Assembly: GCA_023145965.1 (NCBI GenBank)
Contig: JAGLDC010000035.1
Location: 14,462-78,461, forward strand
DNA: 64,000 nt
From: a bacterium
GTDB taxonomy: Bacteria; UBP14; UBA6098
Direction of reading: 5' to 3'
Under the pieces are notes generated by a model. That model did no database searches and was not told the DNA's origin. It saw nothing but the letters and a program-made list of their open reading frames with translations. Positions 17,863 to 63,734 of this stretch are shown piece by piece (the stretch's first letter is position 1; each line of letters starts with the position of its first letter). Both the position numbers and the translations under genes were made by a program.

Positions 17863-17983
17863 ATAAAATATGTGCGCCAATATATATTATAAAATACCAT
17901 ACTATATTGATTAGCAATACCTTACAGTTTGGCACGGCCAATGCGTTAATTCTTTGTGTAACAGAAATAAAACGGAGGTAAAT

Positions 17984-18862
17984 ATGGATTCTACACTAAA
18001 GATATTCGGCTTTTTAATCTGGATGACATCATTGATGTTGTTTTCTGGAGGTTGCGATACTTATATAGTGAATAATGATCCCTACTATCGCGACTGCGAC
18101 GGTTGTTGGTGCGATAATACACCTCCCCAAATTCCTTATAGTGTCCATTCTATCACTGGAGATAATAGCGTATATCTCTACTGGAATCCAATAACTAGCT
18201 GGGATATGGCGGGTTATGCTATTTATCGCGGTTCTTCACCAACCGGTTATTACGATTATATTGGAACGAGCTATTGCGCGAGCTTCACGGATATCTCGGT
18301 GCTAAACGGAGAAACATATTATTATGCTATAGCCAGCTATGATAACTGTGGAAACGAGAGCGAGCTTTCCACCGATTTGATTTATGATACACCTCGCCCG
18401 GAAGGTCATTCCTGGTATTTGTGGGCATCGGAAAGTTATTATTATGACGGTGGATACGATTTTTCGGAAGGCAACATCATTGAATGGGACCATCCGACTT
18501 GCGATGTCTTTTTTGGCCACGATTCCCTGGGCTATTACCTTTGTGCCGCGAACGATTATACTGATATTTTAGACTATGGCCCCGCTTCTAGTCTTTCTGA
18601 TGTCGATATAGCGCCGGAAACCGGATGGAGCTCAATCGCAGACCTAACCGCAGTCGAAGGGCATATTTATGTGCTTTGGACCGCAGATAACCACTTTGCA
18701 GCACTTCTAATTCGAGACATTTCTGGTGAATGCATGACCTTCGATTGGTCATATCAAATTGATACCGGTAATCCCGAACTACGACCATCGAGAAGCGTAG
18801 TCGAAAGAAGAAAAAACCGTCAAATCAAAAGAGGTCTTCGTTTAACCTTGGAAGGAGAATAA
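17984..18862 (+). CDS. Lipoprotein with a fibronectin type III-like domain
   Basis: Start at ATG 17984 with GGAGG 5 nt upstream. Lipobox LFSGGC. FN3-like segment (VYLYWNPI...YAIYRGSSPTGYYDYIGTS...ETYYYAIASYDNCGNES). Confidence 0.5.
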   Translation: MDSTLKIFGFLIWMTSLMLFSGGCDTYIVNNDPYYRDCDGCWCDNTPPQIPYSVHSITGDNSVYLYWNPITSWDMAGYAIYRGSSPTGYYDYIGTSYCASFTDISVLNGETYYYAIASYDNCGNESELSTDLIYDTPRPEGHSWYLWASESYYYDGGYDFSEGNIIEWDHPTCDVFFGHDSLGYYLCAANDYTDILDYGPASSLSDVDIAPETGWSSIADLTAVEGHIYVLWTADNHFAALLIRDISGECMTFDWSYQIDTGNPELRPSRSVVERRKNRQIKRGLRLTLEGE

Positions 18863-41515: not shown

Positions 41516-41674
41516 CCGGGGGGCGTCGGAATTTCTAGTTTAGCGGAAAACCAGTTTTCCGCTAAACTAGAAATCGGCATCCGGCCGGAGCAAAATTCTT
41601 ATTTTTTTCGAAATAGTATCGACCGGCCGGACGCCCACGTTGCGCTTTTTGGCGCAACGCCCGACGCCCCCCTG
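41516..41674. repeat. 159-bp GC-rich nested-palindrome element (MITE-like or structured RNA) bounded by a 14-bp imperfect inverted repeat CCGGGGGGCGTCGG / CCGACGCCCCCC
   Basis: Internal perfect 21-bp-arm hairpin at 41531-41551 / 41554-41574. Two self-complementary TCCGGCCGGA boxes. A CGTTGCGC-TTTTT-GCGCAACG hairpin at 41638-41659. Local GC is far above the surrounding level. Confidence 0.5.
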
Positions 41675-52275: not shown

Positions 52276-52392
52276 TGCCGCTGTCACGATTTTTGCTATT
52301 CAAATCACTTTGTTTTATAAGCCACATTTTCTTATGCAAAAATCTCCACCAAGCCACCCCCTCGCTCGCGCCAGCGGCTCTATTTTTTTAGT
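52276..52392 (+). promoter_or_regulatory. Intergenic element copy 1: sigma54-like -24/-12 motif TGTCACG-ATTT-TTGC, conserved C-rich tract CCACCCCCTC, GC clamp and T8 run (candidate sRNA or regulatory cassette)
   Basis: A 22-bp identical core (CGCTGTCACGATTTTTGCTATT) and further conserved blocks are shared with 62370-62530. It lies in the divergent region between the giant adhesin gene and the PQQ-repeat lipoprotein gene. Confidence 0.4.
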
Positions 52393-52514
52393 GGGGAAAT
52401 ATAGACTTTGGTTTTTTAATTTACACCGAGAGCGAATAGTATTTAATTCCCGAACAATGACAACCACGATAGATGTTGCAAAGACATTCCTTTTGGATTA
52501 ACTTATAGCGATTT

Positions 52515-53672
52515 ATGAGGATTTGGACTTTGACATATTCGGTTTTGGTTGTTGCGCTATTGACATTATCATGCGCCGCGAGGTTCTCCATTCCAAGGGA
52601 ATTGCCTTCTGAGGAAAATCAATGGAGAGCGGTTCGTGGTGATAATTCAGGTTGGGCTTATGCTGGTGAGGGCACCGGCAAAGCGGCTATCCTTTGGCGG
52701 GTTAAAACCAAGATACCAATTATTTCGGCTCCGGTAGCTGGAGATGGCGCCATATTTGTGCCCTCGCCAAACCGGAGAGTATTGGTTTATGGTGCTGAAA
52801 CAGGCAAACGTATCGGACGCCTTTGGGTTGATGCTATGCCCGACAATGGTCTCGCGCTGGGAGGGGGACTTTTAGCTATTGCCGGTCGTGGTGAGTTTAA
52901 TCGCATTAGGGTATATGATTACCATGAAGGCACATTTCTCTGGGACAGGGATTCCGAACGCTCTTTCGCCGCGCCTATTCTTGTTGACAGCATCCTATAT
53001 TTCGCTATATCTACCGGTGCGATATTCTCTCTCGATGCTCGCACTGGAGAGAAGAATTGGCGCTATAAGATAGACGGGGCAGTTATCGACCATGAGCCAG
53101 CTTTCCGAGACAGCCTACTTTTCCTTGTGGACTCAAACAAGCGACTCTTAGCTCTCTCCGCTGATTCGGGCACAGTTCGTTGGTCGCTCGATTTACCATC
53201 CCCACCCTCTGGACAAGCTGTAGTCATCCCAGACCATGTTATTGTTTCAACAATGTCCGGCAAAATTCTTGCGGTTTTACTCGATGGTTCGGTGCGTGTT
53301 TCCATCGATGCTCCCGGCGAGCTTGGTTCCCCTGTTGCTTGTTCGGGTCCGACAATATATGGTGTAACCAAAAAAGGAATTGTTTTCGCTGGAGACCTTG
53401 GTCATGGAGGCATTCTATGGCAAACAAACCTCAGCGCACCAGTTATTGCGCCACCCGTCATTTGGGGTAAACAAATTGTTATCGTTACAGCCGAGGGCAA
53501 AATTTATCTGCTCTATTTTTCCGACGGTGCGATCGAACATACAATTGATCTTGAAGAGCCTGTTACAGCCCCACCGATTATCTATAATTCCAATTTATAT
53601 ATTGCAACAGAAACCGGCGAACTTATAGCCATTACTAGAAATATACAATCTTTGGAGCACAACAATGAATGA
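52515..53672 (+). CDS. PQQ-like beta-propeller repeat lipoprotein (BamB-like)
   Basis: Lipobox LTLSCAA. Repeated PQQ/BamB-type motifs (ILYFAISTGAIFSLDARTGEKNWRYKIDG, KIYLLYFSDGAIEHTIDL). Confidence 0.5.
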   Translation: MRIWTLTYSVLVVALLTLSCAARFSIPRELPSEENQWRAVRGDNSGWAYAGEGTGKAAILWRVKTKIPIISAPVAGDGAIFVPSPNRRVLVYGAETGKRIGRLWVDAMPDNGLALGGGLLAIAGRGEFNRIRVYDYHEGTFLWDRDSERSFAAPILVDSILYFAISTGAIFSLDARTGEKNWRYKIDGAVIDHEPAFRDSLLFLVDSNKRLLALSADSGTVRWSLDLPSPPSGQAVVIPDHVIVSTMSGKILAVLLDGSVRVSIDAPGELGSPVACSGPTIYGVTKKGIVFAGDLGHGGILWQTNLSAPVIAPPVIWGKQIVIVTAEGKIYLLYFSDGAIEHTIDLEEPVTAPPIIYNSNLYIATETGELIAITRNIQSLEHNNE

Positions 53673-56494: not shown

Positions 56495-58462
56495 ATGTTT
56501 ATCATTGTGGTGGTTTTGAGTTTATCTCTTTCTACTTTTGCTCTCGATACGCTATGGACTCCTATCGATATTCCAACACGAACCGGCGATTCACTTGCCG
56601 CAGATATCTACACCCTAGACTCGACCGCCGCAAAGCCGGTTATCCTAATTCAAACGCCATATAATAAGGCCGATTATAGATTCGCTTCATTTATGCTCGA
56701 CACCTCGGACACCAGCGGATTCTGGGATATTCAGCACTACAATTTTGTAATCCTGGATTGGCGAGGTTTTTACGCCTCGACTTCTGCGGGAAGCACCGGC
56801 TATGATCGCGGCCTCGACGGCTACGATGCGGTCGAGTGGATAGCCTCGCAAAGCTGGTGCAACGGCAAAATCGGCACCTACGGCGGTTCGGCACTCGGCG
56901 ATATTCAGTTCAAAACCGCGCACCACCAACCTTCGAATCTCCTTTGCGCCGCCCCATGGATAAAGACCTATAAAACCCGCTATACGAATTACTATTATGG
57001 CGGTGTTTACAAGAAAGAATATGTGGAAGCGCTTGATTTTCTGGGCTTTATAGCGACCAGTGTTATTCTTTCGCGACCCTTATATTCTTTTGTCTGGCAG
57101 TATATCGAAAATAATTCCGACTATCCCGAGGATTTCAAAGTGCCGATGCTCATGCTTAGCGGATGGTTCGATCATTATCCCGCAGATATTATCGAGGATT
57201 TTCACGAAATACGTTCGCGAAGCGATATTTCTGTGAGGGATAAACACAAGCTAATCATGGGGCCATGGACGCACAGCGGAGTCGGGCAGTCGATGCAGGG
57301 AGAACTTGAATATCCCGCAGCGGCTGATTTCGAGAAACCAATAACAAAAAAATTCTTCGATCACTACCTTCGCGGCGCGGATAATGATTATGAATCCGAA
57401 CCGGTAGGGCAATATTTTTTGATGGGCAGCAACATATGGATAGAAACGGATAATTGGTATTCGCTTATCGACGATACCGATACGCTTTACATTCATCAAG
57501 ACGGCCATCTATTTCCATTGGTTGCACCGATATGGGGCACACCTCCGGATTCGTTCGTTTACGATCCGCGTGATCCCTCACCAGCTTATGGGTTCAACAG
57601 ATTCAATCCAGCGGAACCGGGGCTTATATCCGGTCCGCGCGATATGCGCGATTCTGTGGAAAACCGGGATGACAATCTAATCTACTCGACCGATATACTA
57701 ACCGAACCTTTGACTATTATCGGAAGGATCAAAGCGAAATTATTCGTCGAGTCGAATTGCCTCGATACGGATTTCGCGATCCGCATCTCAGATGTCTATC
57801 CAGACGGACGCTCGATGATTTTAACTCAAGGCATTCTTAGAGGCCGTCTTCGCGATACGCTTGGAGTCGAACACCTTATGGTTCTCGATAGCATTTATGA
57901 AATCGATATTGAAACCGAGGTTATTGCGCAGACTTTTCTTCCGGGACACAAGCTTCGTTTAGTAATTACATCGTCAATATATCCTCATTTTCATGCGAAT
58001 ATCAACGATGGCGGTTCTATGTATGATGAAGGCGACACAACTGTTGCAACGAATTTCATTCATCATAACGAGGCACTGCCCTCCGCGCTGATCTTGCCAT
58101 TGAGTAGCGAGCTTCGCATTTCAGAGCGTTCAATAGCAACTAAACCGAACGATTTCTCCCTCCGTGCCTACCCGAATCCGTTCAATTCGGCGGTGCGGAT
58201 AAGCCTCGACTTCGGAAGCAAATCGGCGAAGGCGTTGAGCACGTCGCCCCCCAGCGCGTGCCGGGTCGAGATTTACGATATAAACGGACGGCGCGTCGCG
58301 GAAATTTCTGTTAACGGGAGCGAATCGGCGAAGGCGTTGAGCACGAACGCCTCCGGCGCGTGCCGGTGGCAACCCGACGCCGCAATCGGCTCTGGGGTCT
58401 ATTTCGTGAGAGCGCATTTTAATGATGCGACTGCATCACGCAGAATCTTGTATATAAGATAA
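56495..58462 (+). CDS. Secreted CocE/NonD (S15 X-Pro dipeptidyl-peptidase) family hydrolase with a type-A T9SS sorting domain carrying two in-frame GC-rich insertions
   Basis: Signal peptide. NFVILDWRGFYAS...GKIGTYGGSALG nucleophile elbow. The sorting domain YPNPFNSAVRISLDFG...VEIYDINGRRVAEISVNG...WQPDAAIGSGVYFVRAHF is interrupted twice by S(K/E)SAKALST....ACR. Confidence 0.65.
   Translation: MFIIVVVLSLSLSTFALDTLWTPIDIPTRTGDSLAADIYTLDSTAAKPVILIQTPYNKADYRFASFMLDTSDTSGFWDIQHYNFVILDWRGFYASTSAGSTGYDRGLDGYDAVEWIASQSWCNGKIGTYGGSALGDIQFKTAHHQPSNLLCAAPWIKTYKTRYTNYYYGGVYKKEYVEALDFLGFIATSVILSRPLYSFVWQYIENNSDYPEDFKVPMLMLSGWFDHYPADIIEDFHEIRSRSDISVRDKHKLIMGPWTHSGVGQSMQGELEYPAAADFEKPITKKFFDHYLRGADNDYESEPVGQYFLMGSNIWIETDNWYSLIDDTDTLYIHQDGHLFPLVAPIWGTPPDSFVYDPRDPSPAYGFNRFNPAEPGLISGPRDMRDSVENRDDNLIYSTDILTEPLTIIGRIKAKLFVESNCLDTDFAIRISDVYPDGRSMILTQGILRGRLRDTLGVEHLMVLDSIYEIDIETEVIAQTFLPGHKLRLVITSSIYPHFHANINDGGSMYDEGDTTVATNFIHHNEALPSALILPLSSELRISERSIATKPNDFSLRAYPNPFNSAVRISLDFGSKSAKALSTSPPSACRVEIYDINGRRVAEISVNGSESAKALSTNASGACRWQPDAAIGSGVYFVRAHFNDATASRRILYIR
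58221..58366 (+). repeat. Two direct copies (58221-58265 and 58323-58366) of a GC-rich hairpin-containing element AATCGGCGAAGGCGTTGAGCACG..GCGCGTGCCGG embedded in-frame in the sorting-domain coding region. A third degenerate copy lies at 60287-60349
   Basis: Direct sequence comparison. Each copy contains a GGCG(G)TT...AACGCC stem. Local GC content is much higher than in the flanking coding sequence. Confidence 0.5.
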
Positions 58463-58622: not shown

Positions 58623-60275
58623 ATGAGTCGAAAAACATTTATTGCAGCAGTTGTTTGCTGTTGCGCCTTTTCTGTCATTGCGGAAGTTAAACAAATTGGA
58701 TTCATGACACAGGGAATATCGCATTCGACATATGATAATATGACGTCTGTGCTCGAAAGCGCAGATTTTCATTGCGAAATCCACGAGTTTTGGGATTTCA
58801 CTACTGCAACAGCCGATACCTTCGATTCGCTGGATATTTTTATCGTCCCTAATGCTTCGTATCTAACCACTCCGGACGCCATACGCGATCATTTCGGGCC
58901 GATCATACGCCCATGGGTCGAGTCCGGTGGTTTGTTGATTGTTTTTTACAGGGTTGGCATCTGCTTCATCAACGATGTCAGCCTTTCGCGAATCGGCGAC
59001 TATTCCTCCTTCGACAGCACGCTCTATATTGCAGATGCTGGCCATCCGGTTGCCTCCGGGGTTGATCCCTCTTTCCTTGGAACCGGTAATTGTTGCATTA
59101 CAGACGATTGCCCCGATTACACTCCAATTCTAACAAATCATGCCGAAATACGCGTTAACTCGGGATTCGAAGAACTTGTCTCCGGTTGCGTTGTCTTTCT
59201 CGGATGGGATTATACATTCCGTTCGGAAAATCAAGATTCAATTTTCACGAATGCAATTCGCTATTGGTCGATGGTTTCCGAAGGCCCGATTTGCAGGAGT
59301 GTTTTCCCTCACGATGGCTCCTGGGTTTCATCGGACACGGCAATTGTGCTGGATTTCTTCGACTCCGATGGTCTCGACGCCGCGACAGCCTCGGTAATCG
59401 TAAACGGTGTTACCTATAGCGTTCTCGATCCTGAGTTGACCATATCCGGTGATAGCCTTATTTTCGAACCTACAACATCCTGGGTCGATGGCGATACGAT
59501 CACATTCGAACTTGTGGGTATCGAAGACGCACTCGGTCACGAATCCCCAGACAGCGGCCTCAGTGTAACATATTATATCGATAAAGCAACGCCGTTTATT
59601 ACATATCGCGAACCCGACTCTGCAGTCGTTTTCACCGAGACGCCGACCGGCGCACTCATTCGTTTTGCGGATGCTGGTTGCGGTATTGACAGCATTGGCT
59701 GGAGCCTTAATATCGAGGGCGTCGATGTCGATCCTTCCGGTGCTGGGGTCTATCTCGAAGGCGATTCTACGGTGATCTTGGATTTTGCTAGCGCGGGGAT
59801 ATCCATTACTTCGGGCGATACTGCGTTTATTTCGCTTTCATTATGGGATGCACCGGATGTCGGCGCGGCGAATACTGTGGAACTATCCTGGTGGTTCCTC
59901 GTAGCCACCGGTATCGCGGATGTAGCCACGCCGGATAATTTTGCAATCTCGGCGTATCCGAACCCCTTCAATTCGGCGGTTACAATTTCTTTCGACGGCA
60001 TAGGGGCAATTCATGAATTGCCCCTATGCGTGGAAATCTTCGACCTCGCCGGTCGGCGCGTAGCGCGTTTGCCCTCACCCTCGGTCCCTCTCCCAGGGGG
60101 AGAGGGAGGGAATTCCTTCTCCCTTTGGGAGAAGGTGGCCGAAGGCCGGATGAGGGCCGAATATATCTGGCAACCCGACGCCGCAATCGGTTCCGGCGTC
60201 TATCTCGTCCGCGCAACATTTCCGCAACAGACGACTTCAGCCGCCTGCACGAAGCGGGTGGTGTATTTGAAATGA
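58623..60275 (+). CDS. Secreted hypothetical protein with a type-A T9SS sorting domain that carries a palindromic GC-rich insertion
   Basis: Signal peptide. No recognisable catalytic domain. The sorting domain YPNPFNSAVTISFDG...VEIFDLAGRRVA[RLPSPSVPLPGGEGGNSFSLWEKVAEGRMRAEY]IWQPDAAIGSGVYLVRATF. The 3' end is about 80% identical at the DNA level to the 3' end of the preceding gene. Confidence 0.55.
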   Translation: MSRKTFIAAVVCCCAFSVIAEVKQIGFMTQGISHSTYDNMTSVLESADFHCEIHEFWDFTTATADTFDSLDIFIVPNASYLTTPDAIRDHFGPIIRPWVESGGLLIVFYRVGICFINDVSLSRIGDYSSFDSTLYIADAGHPVASGVDPSFLGTGNCCITDDCPDYTPILTNHAEIRVNSGFEELVSGCVVFLGWDYTFRSENQDSIFTNAIRYWSMVSEGPICRSVFPHDGSWVSSDTAIVLDFFDSDGLDAATASVIVNGVTYSVLDPELTISGDSLIFEPTTSWVDGDTITFELVGIEDALGHESPDSGLSVTYYIDKATPFITYREPDSAVVFTETPTGALIRFADAGCGIDSIGWSLNIEGVDVDPSGAGVYLEGDSTVILDFASAGISITSGDTAFISLSLWDAPDVGAANTVELSWWFLVATGIADVATPDNFAISAYPNPFNSAVTISFDGIGAIHELPLCVEIFDLAGRRVARLPSPSVPLPGGEGGNSFSLWEKVAEGRMRAEYIWQPDAAIGSGVYLVRATFPQQTTSAACTKRVVYLK

Positions 60276-60497
60276 CGCCGACTCCGCCAAAGGCGGTTGA
60301 GGCCAAACGCCCGTCGGCGCGTGCCGACCGAAACGGGTGGTGTATCTAAAGTAGTATTATGTCATTAGATTACAGATTTAGTTGAGACCTTAGGTTAAGG
60401 CCGCAGTTGTGGTAATCAGGTATCAAAATTGCTTCCTCATTGGAAGGACATCGATTATTTCTAATACCCACTACCTTTTAACTTTTTAAATTATAAC

Positions 60498-60524
60498 TTG
60501 ACAATTCAAAAACCTGTGTATAGT
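60498..60524 (+). promoter_or_regulatory. Candidate sigma70-type promoter TTGACA-15-TATAGT upstream of rpmE
   Basis: TTGACA at 60498-60503, TG-extended TATAGT at 60519-60524, about 40 nt before the rpmE start. Confidence 0.35.
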
Positions 60525-60848: not shown

Positions 60849-60905
60849 TGTTTTATATTTCTAAAGCTATATTTTAAAAAGTTAATTCTTTGCAAGGAGA
60901 AAAAT

Positions 60906-62369: not shown

Positions 62370-62530
62370 CATCTCGCTGTCACGATTTTTGCTATTTTTA
62401 AGTTTTTGGTAGTAATATACATTTTCCCGCGCAAAAATCCCCATCGACCACCCCTCTGTCACGAAATTTGCATAGCGGGCAAATTTCGTGACATCGTCCT
62501 TCCCCGCGCCAGCGAGGGTTTTTTCTGGCG
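62370..62530 (+). promoter_or_regulatory. Intergenic element copy 2: same TGTCACG-ATTT-TTGC core as copy 1 plus a 37-bp perfect palindrome TGTCACGAAATTTGC-ATAGCGG-GCAAATTTCGTGACA, C-rich tract and T-run
   Basis: Shared blocks with 52276-52392. The palindrome repeats the same half-site in inverted orientation. It sits between pyrE and moxR. Confidence 0.4.
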
Positions 62531-62732
62531 AAATAACAGCTTTTTTTATATTTGGGATTGCCTCTTATATATATTCTTTTACATATTGCTGAAATAATAA
62601 ACTGCAATTAAATATACTGTTTTGGTTAGGGCTGGCATTTGAATCGCTTGTGTAAAAGATGTTTAGCGATTGACACACGATGTCGATAATCATATAATTT
62701 ATCGAATTTTAAATCGATATGTGGAGGCAAAT

Positions 62733-63734
62733 ATGACTGAAATGAAAACTGATGTTCTTGCGATAAAAGAACTTGCAAACTCTGCTGATAAAATAAAAAA
62801 AGAAATTGCAAAAGTCATTGTCGGGCAAGAGAAGGTTATCGATGAGATGATGGTTGCACTTCTCTCGGGTGGCCATGTTCTTTTAATCGGTGTGCCTGGG
62901 CTTGCTAAAACACTCATGATCTCGACTTTGGCGCAGGCTTTAGATCTCAAGTTTAACCGTATTCAGTTCACGCCAGATTTAATGCCATCGGATATTACTG
63001 GCACAGAGATTCTCGAAGAGGATAGAACTAGCGGGACCCGGGTTTTCCGTTTCTTGAGCGGTCCAGTTTTCTGTAATATTCTTTTAACTGATGAAATAAA
63101 CCGCACACCTCCAAAAACGCAAGCTGCGCTTCTTCAAGCGATGCAAGAACATGAGGTTTCTGCCGGGGATAAGACATTCAAGCTTGATATGCCGTTTTTT
63201 GTTCTTTCGACACAGAATCCCATTGAACAAGAAGGCACATACCCTCTCCCCGAGGCTCAACTCGACCGTTTCATGTTGAATATTTACATAGATTATCCCA
63301 CAGAGAAAGAGGAGATGGAGATAGTCCGCTATACAACCGGTGCACGAATTCCTGTTGTTGAGAGTGTTTTAGATGCTACAAAGATAATCGAACTTCAGAA
63401 CCTTGTTCGGCGTATCCCTGCAGCAGATTACGTAATTCAGTATGCAATCGATCTTGTGCGCAATAGCAGACCGGAGACAACGACACTCGACTATATCAAG
63501 AAGTGGGTTCGCTGGGGTGCTGGCCCTCGTGCAGGACAATTCTTAACACTTGGAGCAAAAACCGTTGCGGCTCTCGATGGTAGGGTTACACCGGGGATCG
63601 AAGATATTCAACAAATAATACTTCCGGTTTTAAGACACAGGATTATAACTAGCTTCACAGCCGATGCCGAGGGCATAACAACCGACGATATCATCAAAAA
63701 ACTGGTGAAGGATATAGTTCCTCCAAAAAAATAA
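62733..63734 (+). CDS. MoxR-family AAA+ ATPase
   Basis: Start at ATG 62733 with GGAGG 8 nt upstream. Walker A GVPGLAKT, Walker B LLTDEINR, and the MoxR-typical length and motifs. Confidence 0.85.
   Translation: MTEMKTDVLAIKELANSADKIKKEIAKVIVGQEKVIDEMMVALLSGGHVLLIGVPGLAKTLMISTLAQALDLKFNRIQFTPDLMPSDITGTEILEEDRTSGTRVFRFLSGPVFCNILLTDEINRTPPKTQAALLQAMQEHEVSAGDKTFKLDMPFFVLSTQNPIEQEGTYPLPEAQLDRFMLNIYIDYPTEKEEMEIVRYTTGARIPVVESVLDATKIIELQNLVRRIPAADYVIQYAIDLVRNSRPETTTLDYIKKWVRWGAGPRAGQFLTLGAKTVAALDGRVTPGIEDIQQIILPVLRHRIITSFTADAEGITTDDIIKKLVKDIVPPKK

Follow-up and report, generated by a model that had tools for sequence, protein, structure and literature searches.

A dispersed family of intergenic hairpins in a UBP14 bacterium and its relatives, with a stem shared by integron attC-type sites and a sigma-54-like register

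Repetitive extragenic palindromic (REP) sequences and bacterial interspersed mosaic elements (BIMEs) are short imperfect palindromes with conserved stem mismatches. They lie between genes, number in the tens in a genome, take either orientation, are often placed at the 3' ends of genes and form mosaics with other repeat modules. REP sequences are known as species- or genus-specific. Here we describe an element of similar appearance in a bacterium of the UBP14 lineage (UBA6098). Two intergenic regions (52276-52392 and 62370-62530) of a 64,000-nucleotide stretch of DNA (contig JAGLDC010000035.1, positions 14,462 to 78,461; hereafter the window) carry one copy each. We put the probability at about one half that both regions carry an interspersed repeat of the REP/BIME or miniature-inverted-repeat kind that is non-coding, forms a hairpin and probably works, or spreads, as folded single-stranded DNA or as a cruciform and not as a gene. 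The family itself is real and of interest. In relatives the element is short, intergenic and multi-copy, occurs in either orientation and forms mosaics with other repeat modules, as in the flanks of the CAYNTG01 and UBP14 copies; the window has two copies. Unlike REP sequences and BIMEs, it has no GTAG-type 5' tetranucleotide, its apex is long, it carries a C-rich bulge, its stem is common across phyla, and no REP-associated tyrosine transposase was found near any copy (76 neighbouring open reading frames (ORFs); whole genomes not searched).

Small miniature inverted-repeat transposable elements (MITEs) such as Correia/NEMIS, ERIC and RUP resemble the element in their length of 70-150 nt, inverted-repeat ends, intergenic position, nested insertion and variable presence between relatives, and they can carry promoter-like or terminator-like signals. 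Inverted arms are present in the element, and the orthologous sites of several relatives are empty. It differs from these MITEs in that neither a parent insertion sequence nor any other autonomous element was found, the bases flanking the arms covary rather than being fixed, and there is no clear target-site duplication, only a possible TC around a palindrome nested in the second copy. Integron attC sites likewise are imperfect hairpins with strand asymmetry, and their bottom strand is known to fold better. In a Firmicutes-type cassette array, attC sites have an apical part identical to the stem of the element, whereas the window copies lack R and L boxes, arrays and a nearby integrase. The attC region that matches the conserved part of the element is normally called variable (PMC4889954). 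In its conservation across phyla, its C-rich bulge and this correspondence to the variable region of attC, the element is unlike known repeats.

Two further systems share features with it. Sigma-54 promoters have the same TG(G/T)CACG-N4-TTGC register, and the invariant positions of the family are the GG and TGC on which sigma-54 recognition centres (PMC3844500); the element differs in its GT at -24, its palindromic partner arm, an orientation independent of genes and its occurrence in convergent contexts. C-rich regulatory small RNAs of the RsaE/RoxS, LhrC and csRNA type have in common with it an unpaired C-rich stretch, a multi-copy "sibling" arrangement and, in the window copies, a hairpin followed by a U-run, whereas the element family has no conserved promoter or terminator, conserved seed or Rfam match and almost no G·U pairing.

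The hairpin and its covariation

The 22-mer CGCTGTCACGATTTTTGCTATT occurs at 52279-52300 and 62375-62396, and these are its sole two matches in the window at up to three mismatches (0/100 shuffled sequences; expected number 0). A preliminary description of the window had reported this shared core together with several smaller shared blocks, and all of them were found where it placed them. It did not notice that the blocks are mutually reverse-complementary, GATTTTTGC with GCAAAAATC and (G/C)(C/T)CGCTG with CAGCG(G/A)(G/C). In the predicted fold, what had been called a promoter core and a GC clamp are the two halves of one stem. The outer stem is formed by GCTGTCACG with CGCGCCAGC and contains a T·C mismatch and usually an A·C mismatch as well; the inner stem is formed by ATTTTTGC with GCAAAAAT. 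From 5' to 3', each copy consists of outer arm, inner arm, an apex of 38-39 nt, inner arm, C-rich tract, outer arm and T-run. The C-rich tract forms an unpaired bulge of 22-26 nt on the 3' side in the window lineage. Both stems were predicted in both copies and on both strands (folding z-scores of -2.5 to -4.6). The features are as follows.

Shared blocks (copy 1; copy 2)
52324-52330; 62419-62425: ACATTTT
from 52336; from 62431: GCAAAAATC(T/C)CCA
52354-52363; 62448-62456: CCACCCC(C)TC
52367-52376; 62505-62514: CGCGCCAGCG, the GC clamp
Copy 1
52277-52378 (+): whole element, outer stem to outer stem, 102 nt; covariance model 56.1 bits, E = 2.6e-12
52277-52296 (+): 5' arm, GCCGCTGTCACG outer and ATTTTTGC inner, including TGTCACG-N4-TTGC; pairs with 52336-52344 and 52367-52378
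52297-52335 (+): apical region, 39 nt, beginning with TA and containing TATAAG and ACATTTT
52336-52344 (+): inner 3' arm, GCAAAAATC, reverse complement of 52288-52296
52345-52366 (+): C/A-rich, G-poor tract, 22 nt, unpaired in the predicted fold
52367-52378 (+): outer 3' arm, CGCGCCAGCGGC; pairs with 52277-52288, T·C and A·C mismatches remaining
52383-52389 (+): T-run 3' of the hairpin, which the family does not share; at 52362-52377 a weak terminator-like call
Copy 2
62373-62516 (+): whole element, 144 nt including the nested palindrome; covariance model 27.8 bits, E = 7e-5
62373-62392 (+): 5' arm, CTCGCTGTCACG and ATTTTTGC
62393-62430 (+): apical region, 38 nt, with TTGCTA-N18-TAATAT and ACATTTT
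62431-62439 (+): inner 3' arm, GCAAAAATC
62440-62456 (+): C-rich tract, first part
62457-62493: nested perfect palindrome, 37 nt, TGTCACGAAATTTGC-ATAGCGG-GCAAATTTCGTGACA, with TC on either side
62494-62504 (+): C-rich tract, second part
62505-62516 (+): outer 3' arm, CGCGCCAGCGAG
62519-62524 (+): T-run, 210 nt past the pyrE stop codon; no call in the terminator scan

The outer arm GCCGCTGTCACG of copy 1 thus has CGCGCCAGCGGC as its partner, and CTCGCTGTCACG of copy 2 pairs with CGCGCCAGCGAG. Whether or not filters were applied, a covariance model built from relatives found these two copies in the window and no others. Beyond the hairpin, no homology was seen between the 5' flanks of the two copies, while the 3' flanks share the T-run and perhaps TGG(G/C)GAAATA. 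The motif TGTCACG-N4-TTGC occurs four times in the window, against 0.69 expected at up to one mismatch. The two additional occurrences (62457-62471 on the plus and 62479-62493 on the minus strand), overlooked in the preliminary description, are the arms of the palindrome in copy 2, which is a second module of the same motif inserted within the C-rich tract. Without the palindrome and one TC, the tract measures 26 nt, inside the family range. The inner stem of the palindrome, AAATTTGC/GCAAATTT, is also present in CAYNTG01 (locus L140). Copy 2 holds TTCCCCGCGCCAGCGAGGG as well, which recalls the type I-E-like repeat CCCCGCGCCAGCGGGG of clustered regularly interspaced short palindromic repeats (CRISPR); this assignment was rejected, there being neither an array nor cas genes in the window.

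The three bases that extend the stem covary, being GCC/GGC in copy 1, CTC/GAG in copy 2 and AAC/GTT in a diverged copy of a relative (L134). Aligned to the covariance model, 31 solo-type copies had 94% of stem cells paired, versus 34-49% with slid partners. Eight stem pairs were changed on both sides, and the observed covariation score was reached by 0/500 shuffles. Since this alignment was fitted to the model and the 17-mer in it was fixed by the search, the informative pairs are those of the stem extension and the apex. Independent support came from diverged copies, whose detection did not rest on the exact 17-mer. Locus L141 carries two compact copies in tandem, whose inner stems are AGTTCTTGC/GCAAGAACT and TACATGC/GCATGTA, and the inner stem of the L134 copy is CCTCTCGC/GCGAGAG. 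The outer stem is kept in all three, with both mismatches in the L141 copies and the A·C alone in L134. In attC arrays, T-A to C-G double changes were observed at two stem positions and the T·C mismatch was never altered.

Several properties of the stem bear on the level at which it acts. Only 1 of 601 cells is a G·U pair, though 30 cells are changed on both sides. In 38/38 copies, with DNA or RNA parameters, the more stable fold is that of the strand complementary to the TGTCACG arm, where the conserved mismatches T·C and A·C turn into G·A and G·T. The scarcity of G·U pairs, the better folding of the complementary strand, the lack of orientation bias, the convergent contexts and the missing T-run in relatives favour a DNA-level hairpin or cruciform more than a transcript. 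Length is constrained outside the stem too. The apex of relatives' copies has the same length (38-40 nt) and a similar ATTTYC end, which reads ACATTTTYC in the window and in UBP14. The C-rich tract, which the preliminary description had singled out and which proved to be a family feature, measures 23-28 nt in CAYNTG01, UBP14, B46_G16 and DAOWNU01, with composition and length kept and the sequence variable.

Copies in relatives and in other phyla

For the family scan, one genome per species was searched for the exact 17-mer GCTGTCACGATTTTTGC, which gave at least 120 stretches. Among the 135 matches listed are the window's own scaffold, present in two copies, and four viral contigs; of the 135, 53 have complementary arms in the expected order. 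Among the matches listed, the hairpin occurs in three settings: solo with a C-rich tract, at the apex of attC units, and inside longer solitary elements. Solo dispersed copies number at least 21 in the metagenome-assembled genome (MAG) CAYNTG01 and at least eight in UBP14 UBA6098, and more are present in B46_G16 and another MAG. The window organism is related to CAYNTG01, which has the same pair of PQQ-like and asnS-like genes (59% identity) and a MatE protein with 55% identity. Many solo copies lie at contig ends or beside N gaps and are joined to other repeat modules as mosaic clusters. In CAYNTG01, N gaps stand directly beside repeat copies (L140 3078-3176, L010 after 1460, and the start of L084), which fits a repeat that breaks the assembly.

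The neighbours of solo copies are unrelated, ordinary housekeeping genes. No transposase or integrase, Y1 transposases included, was found among the 76 ORFs adjoining them (whole genomes not searched). The copies of relatives have no orientation bias to either neighbour, and several lie between convergent gene 3' ends. Neither the T-run nor any terminator is present in these copies.

At the orthologous sites, the element is missing after pyrE in three of four checkable relatives and before the PQQ-like gene in four of five. In CAYNTG01 (L140), a diverged copy lies 57 nt upstream of the PQQ-like gene; a further GCTGGCACG faces the gene before an N gap, and this gap hides most of the copy. In L134, a diverged copy lies 75 nt past pyrE in the opposite orientation. 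By a rough estimate, at about one copy per 40 kb, the chance of both neighbourhood coincidences is about 1%, which points to long retention or site preference. A metagenome scan with the asnS/aspS-like protein gave one close relative, whose sequence does not include the upstream region.

The attC-apex setting was found in HGW-Firmicutes-14, HGW-Firmicutes-8 and Thermincola-like MAGs. In L058, ten attC-like units lie within 8 kb, each bounded by GCCTAAC...GTTAGGC with the hairpin at its apex, and the cassettes encode GNAT, DUF2971, DUF3788 and unknown proteins. In L058, L071 and L026, canonical attC units have this 17-bp stem as their apex, with an identical T·C mismatch and an unchanged orientation to the R boxes. 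Dense attC-type cassette arrays are in fact present in several Firmicutes-labelled MAGs (L058, L071, L026, L028 and L054 of HGW-Firmicutes-14, L009 of HGW-Firmicutes-8, and L094 of a Thermincola MAG; an integrase was looked for in the fetched pieces only). Complete integrons have been reported absent from Firmicutes genomes, where attC-site clusters without integron-integrases (CALIN) alone were found (PMC4889954).

In Gammaproteobacteria, the stem lies within hairpins of about 95 nt with TAAC...GTTA ends. In Betaproteobacteria, it lies within elements of about 270 nt bounded by the terminal inverted repeats AGAGCGCCTAAC...GTTAGGCGCTCT. The betaproteobacterial element (L017, L021, L055, L076, L093, L122 and others) has 30-nt inverted ends, AGAGCGCCTAACAGAATGAAAC...GTTTCATTCTGTTAGGCGCTCT, often beside TA/TTA; it occurs once per locus, sometimes split by larger insertions, with the hairpin inside, and looks like an undescribed MITE. 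A search of a plasmid collection gave no relevant match for the window copy or the betaproteobacterial element. Rfam, searched at the gathering threshold and at E values up to 10, returned nothing relevant for the window or 23 related loci. The motif was not found in the full text of the literature, and attC combined with sigma-54 or promoter retrieved nothing relevant.

Matches in viruses and Bacteroidetes were of another kind. In viral contigs, the 17-mer alone gave four matches without a partner arm, and the hairpin pattern gave none. In two related phage contigs (L003 8430-8446 and L006 2793-2809), GCTGTCACGATTTTTGCAGAGTAAAAGGGAAG-N9-ATG directly follows a stop codon, with no partner arm, a promoter-like position for the GT variant of the sigma-54 motif. 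The Bacteroidetes matches (Aequorivita, Tannerella and others) belong to a different conserved element beside a DDE transposase and were left out of the family because the partner outer arm is missing. This element, CGAGCCTGCGGGTCGCTGCGGGCTAATCGG-GCTGTCACGATTTTTGCA, holds the same 17-mer (L104 2465 and 4268; L008, L014, L018, L024, L085 and others), and in L104 it flanks the gene of a 502-residue DDE transposase as a direct repeat.

Weighing the explanations

For an interspersed repeat, a trans-acting factor (a recombinase, a transposase or possibly the sigma-54 holoenzyme) would recognise the folded stem with its strand-marking mismatches, and the window copies would be long-lived passengers in intergenic DNA. 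Local effects would be incidental at most, such as those of the hairpin and T-run after pyrE or of the weak sigma-70-like pair in the apex (TTGCTA-N17-TATAAG in copy 1, which was not called by the promoter scan). Some observations weigh against this explanation. No enzyme, parent element or clear target-site duplication was found; the constant length and partly conserved end (ACATTTTYC) of the apex and the constant length of the C-rich tract point to constraints beyond selfish spread; the copies in the same neighbourhoods suggest a site preference or else long-term retention under selection, and with such retention a host function; the invariant stem positions coincide with those of sigma-54 recognition, which a plain structural repeat does not predict; and the element may also have a role as RNA. 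The last of these alternatives would make the element a structured RNA driven by a flanking or internal promoter: a small RNA that pairs through its C-rich tract with ribosome-binding sites of the GGAGG type, or a hairpin that acts in cis to terminate or stabilise a transcript. Ribosome-binding sites of the GGAGG/GAGGA type are in use in this organism (52517-52521, and 62723-62727 ahead of the MoxR-like gene), the fold leaves the C-rich tract, with its CUCC/CCUC, unpaired, T-runs follow both window copies, and retention at two gene neighbourhoods in relatives suggests a function. Some long-apex copies also have apical sigma-70 hexamers (TTGCTA-N17/18 followed by TATAAG, TAATAT or GAATAT), whose spacing and -10 quality are inconsistent and which fall below the scan threshold. 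The preliminary description had proposed a promoter core followed by an RNA of 85-120 nt ending at the T-run. It was right that this is a genuine non-coding sequence family, but the proposed transcription unit was not supported, as the core is one half of a hairpin, the T-run is absent in relatives, and short-apex copies, which have no promoter-like sequence, lack room for an RNA body. An RNA that started 12 nt past the TTGC would not hold both stem halves, which makes a simple small-RNA gene unlikely. Promoter and terminator were not found at fixed positions either: the upstream flanks are unrelated, and the terminator scan made a weak call for copy 1 and no call for copy 2. Together with the near absence of G·U pairs, a C-rich tract conserved in composition and length and not in sequence, and the lack of an Rfam match, these points leave a structured RNA unlikely; the 21 or more copies in one genome, the mosaics and the stem inside attC sites fit DNA repeats better.

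The resemblance to sigma-54 sites is harder to set aside. The register that had been claimed is real, the top arm matching 10 of 11 consensus positions, and across 49 distinct arm pairs from attC arrays TG(G/T) and TGC stay invariant, exactly in the -24/-12 register, with a spacer that is more variable and compensated. The arms might bind the holoenzyme and serve the plus-strand genes as their promoter, act as a decoy or roadblock, or present a folded duplex ending in a fork junction at -12. The bottom arm of the compact copies reads TGGCGCG-N4-(T/A)TGC, the CAYNTG01 copy before the PQQ-like gene begins with GCTGGCACG and faces that gene, and a universal consensus would explain conservation across phyla. 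In a Salmonella ChIP-chip (chromatin immunoprecipitation on microarrays) table, TGTCACGTATTTTGCATG and TGGCGCGCTTTTTGCCTT are predicted sites in enriched regions (PMC3844500). A canonical-looking site, TGGCACGGCCAATGC (TGGCACG-N4-ATGC), lies between genes at 17930-17944 on the plus strand, 41 nt before GGAGG-N5-ATG at 17985, where it heads three ORFs (to 20351) without a Pfam match; on account of this sequence, the window organism probably uses sigma-54 with a normal GG. As a promoter for a downstream RNA or gene, however, the element falls short in several respects. All four occurrences in the window have the register and the TGC at -12 with GT instead of GG at -24, so that the intact arm of the window copies lacks the GG; the core pairs with the GC clamp; and the GG-bearing arm is broken by 22 nt (copy 1) or 65 nt (copy 2) and is likewise split, by a tract of 22-26 nt, in the CAYNTG01 and UBP14 copies. 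The window copies do face plus-strand genes, at 234 and 341 nt, but elsewhere several copies lie between convergent gene ends and no orientation bias is seen, the GG arm is antisense to the cassettes of the cassette array, and an extra T shifts the register in Betaproteobacteria. Neither rpoN nor an enhancer-binding protein was found among 39 ORFs of the window, the MoxR-like gene is served by a perfect sigma-70 promoter of its own, and a promoter needs no covariation of its flank with a partner arm. A sigma-54-related DNA site is on balance quite improbable; we keep it as a minority rival because the likeness to the recognition positions is non-trivial. More doubtful still is a folded-DNA docking site, in which the refolded arms would rebuild the -24/-12 duplex and the mismatches would mark the strand that is read. 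The stem ends at GC in most lineages, and the rebuilt duplex would stop at the GC of -12, where sigma-54 holds the fork junction. Such a site might recruit RNA polymerase-sigma-54 to single-stranded intermediates of cassettes or mobile elements; it could prime second-strand synthesis or gate recombination and could later have been kept as a dispersed repeat in Zixibacteria-like lineages. In a weaker form of this idea, the solo hairpins and the attC apex could share an ancestor. That the window copies are themselves solitary or decayed attC sites, left as cassette remnants or by secondary-site insertion with the integrase encoded elsewhere, is highly improbable. The identical stem, mismatch and orientation in the apices of L058, L071 and L026, the gammaproteobacterial TAAC...GTTA hairpins and the favoured folding of the bottom strand are in line with such an origin. 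The window copies, however, have no RYYYAAC/GTTRRRY boxes or L boxes, their stem ends 3 bp past GCTG/CAGC, they lie 10 kb apart among housekeeping genes with no array, cassette-like ORFs or intI in the window, and a C-rich bulge is not an attC feature.

If the element is merely a repeat, it accounts for two spurious ORFs, a small practical gain. For annotators it is a warning that one half of a palindrome can look like a near-perfect sigma-54 motif, and it provides an element to search for that breaks assemblies of this MAG group. Three features give it greater interest than an ordinary repeat would have. The 17-bp stem and its mismatch recur in Zixibacteria-like bacteria, UBP14, Thermincola-like Firmicutes, and Beta- and Gammaproteobacteria. 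The attC apex is usually described as unconserved, and here the stem serves as attC apex in one lineage; shared ancestry, if true, would bear on the origin of attC. The invariant bases of the element are those that sigma-54 reads.

Genomic setting in the window

The window is part of an 84.8-kb metagenome scaffold that carries housekeeping genes and type IX secretion substrates. The two copies lie 10 kb apart among asnS/aspS-like, ftsX-like, pepX-like, rpmE, pyrF and pyrE genes. Copy 1 is situated between divergent genes: a CHU_C protein of 1957 residues is encoded on the minus strand, and the PQQ-like/asnS-like operon runs on the plus strand. Among named homologues of the PQQ-like protein, the closest comes from Zixibacteria (60% identity). 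Copy 2 lies 63 nt past the pyrE stop codon, with 217 nt between it and the MoxR-like gene, whose ATG at 62733 follows a GGAGG. This gene has a perfect sigma-70 promoter, TTGACA-17-TATAAT, 35 nt ahead of it at 62670-62698 on the plus strand, and therefore does not need the repeat as its promoter. The hairpin and T-run of copy 2 could end the rpmE-pyrF-pyrE transcript. Among the window's 39 ORFs of at least 150 residues that were accepted as genes, neither the Pfam scan nor the contig gene table gave an rpoN, enhancer-binding protein, integrase or transposase.

The ORFs 52310-52501 and 62406-62597, which overlap the two copies, had been dismissed as spurious in the preliminary description. The comparison agrees: the two ORFs, of 63 codons each, have no meaningful similarity at the protein level (8/23 identities, E = 0.03), so that small protein genes were rejected and the ORFs are regarded as spurious.

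Other repeats were noted in the window. A perfect 21-bp inverted repeat with a 2-nt centre (ATTTCTAGTTTAGCGGAAAAC/GTTTTCCGCTAAACTAGAAAT, 41531-41574) lies between the MatE and ROK-family genes and could be an operator or a bidirectional terminator. The rpmE (L31) gene is flanked by 36-nt AT-rich inverted repeats (60478-60513 and 60850-60885) that are 81% complementary. At 58145-58407 and 59931-60208, the genes of two adjacent secreted proteins, an S15-type peptidase and a 550-residue protein, share C-terminal DNA repeats, which correspond to the type IX secretion sorting domains of these proteins.

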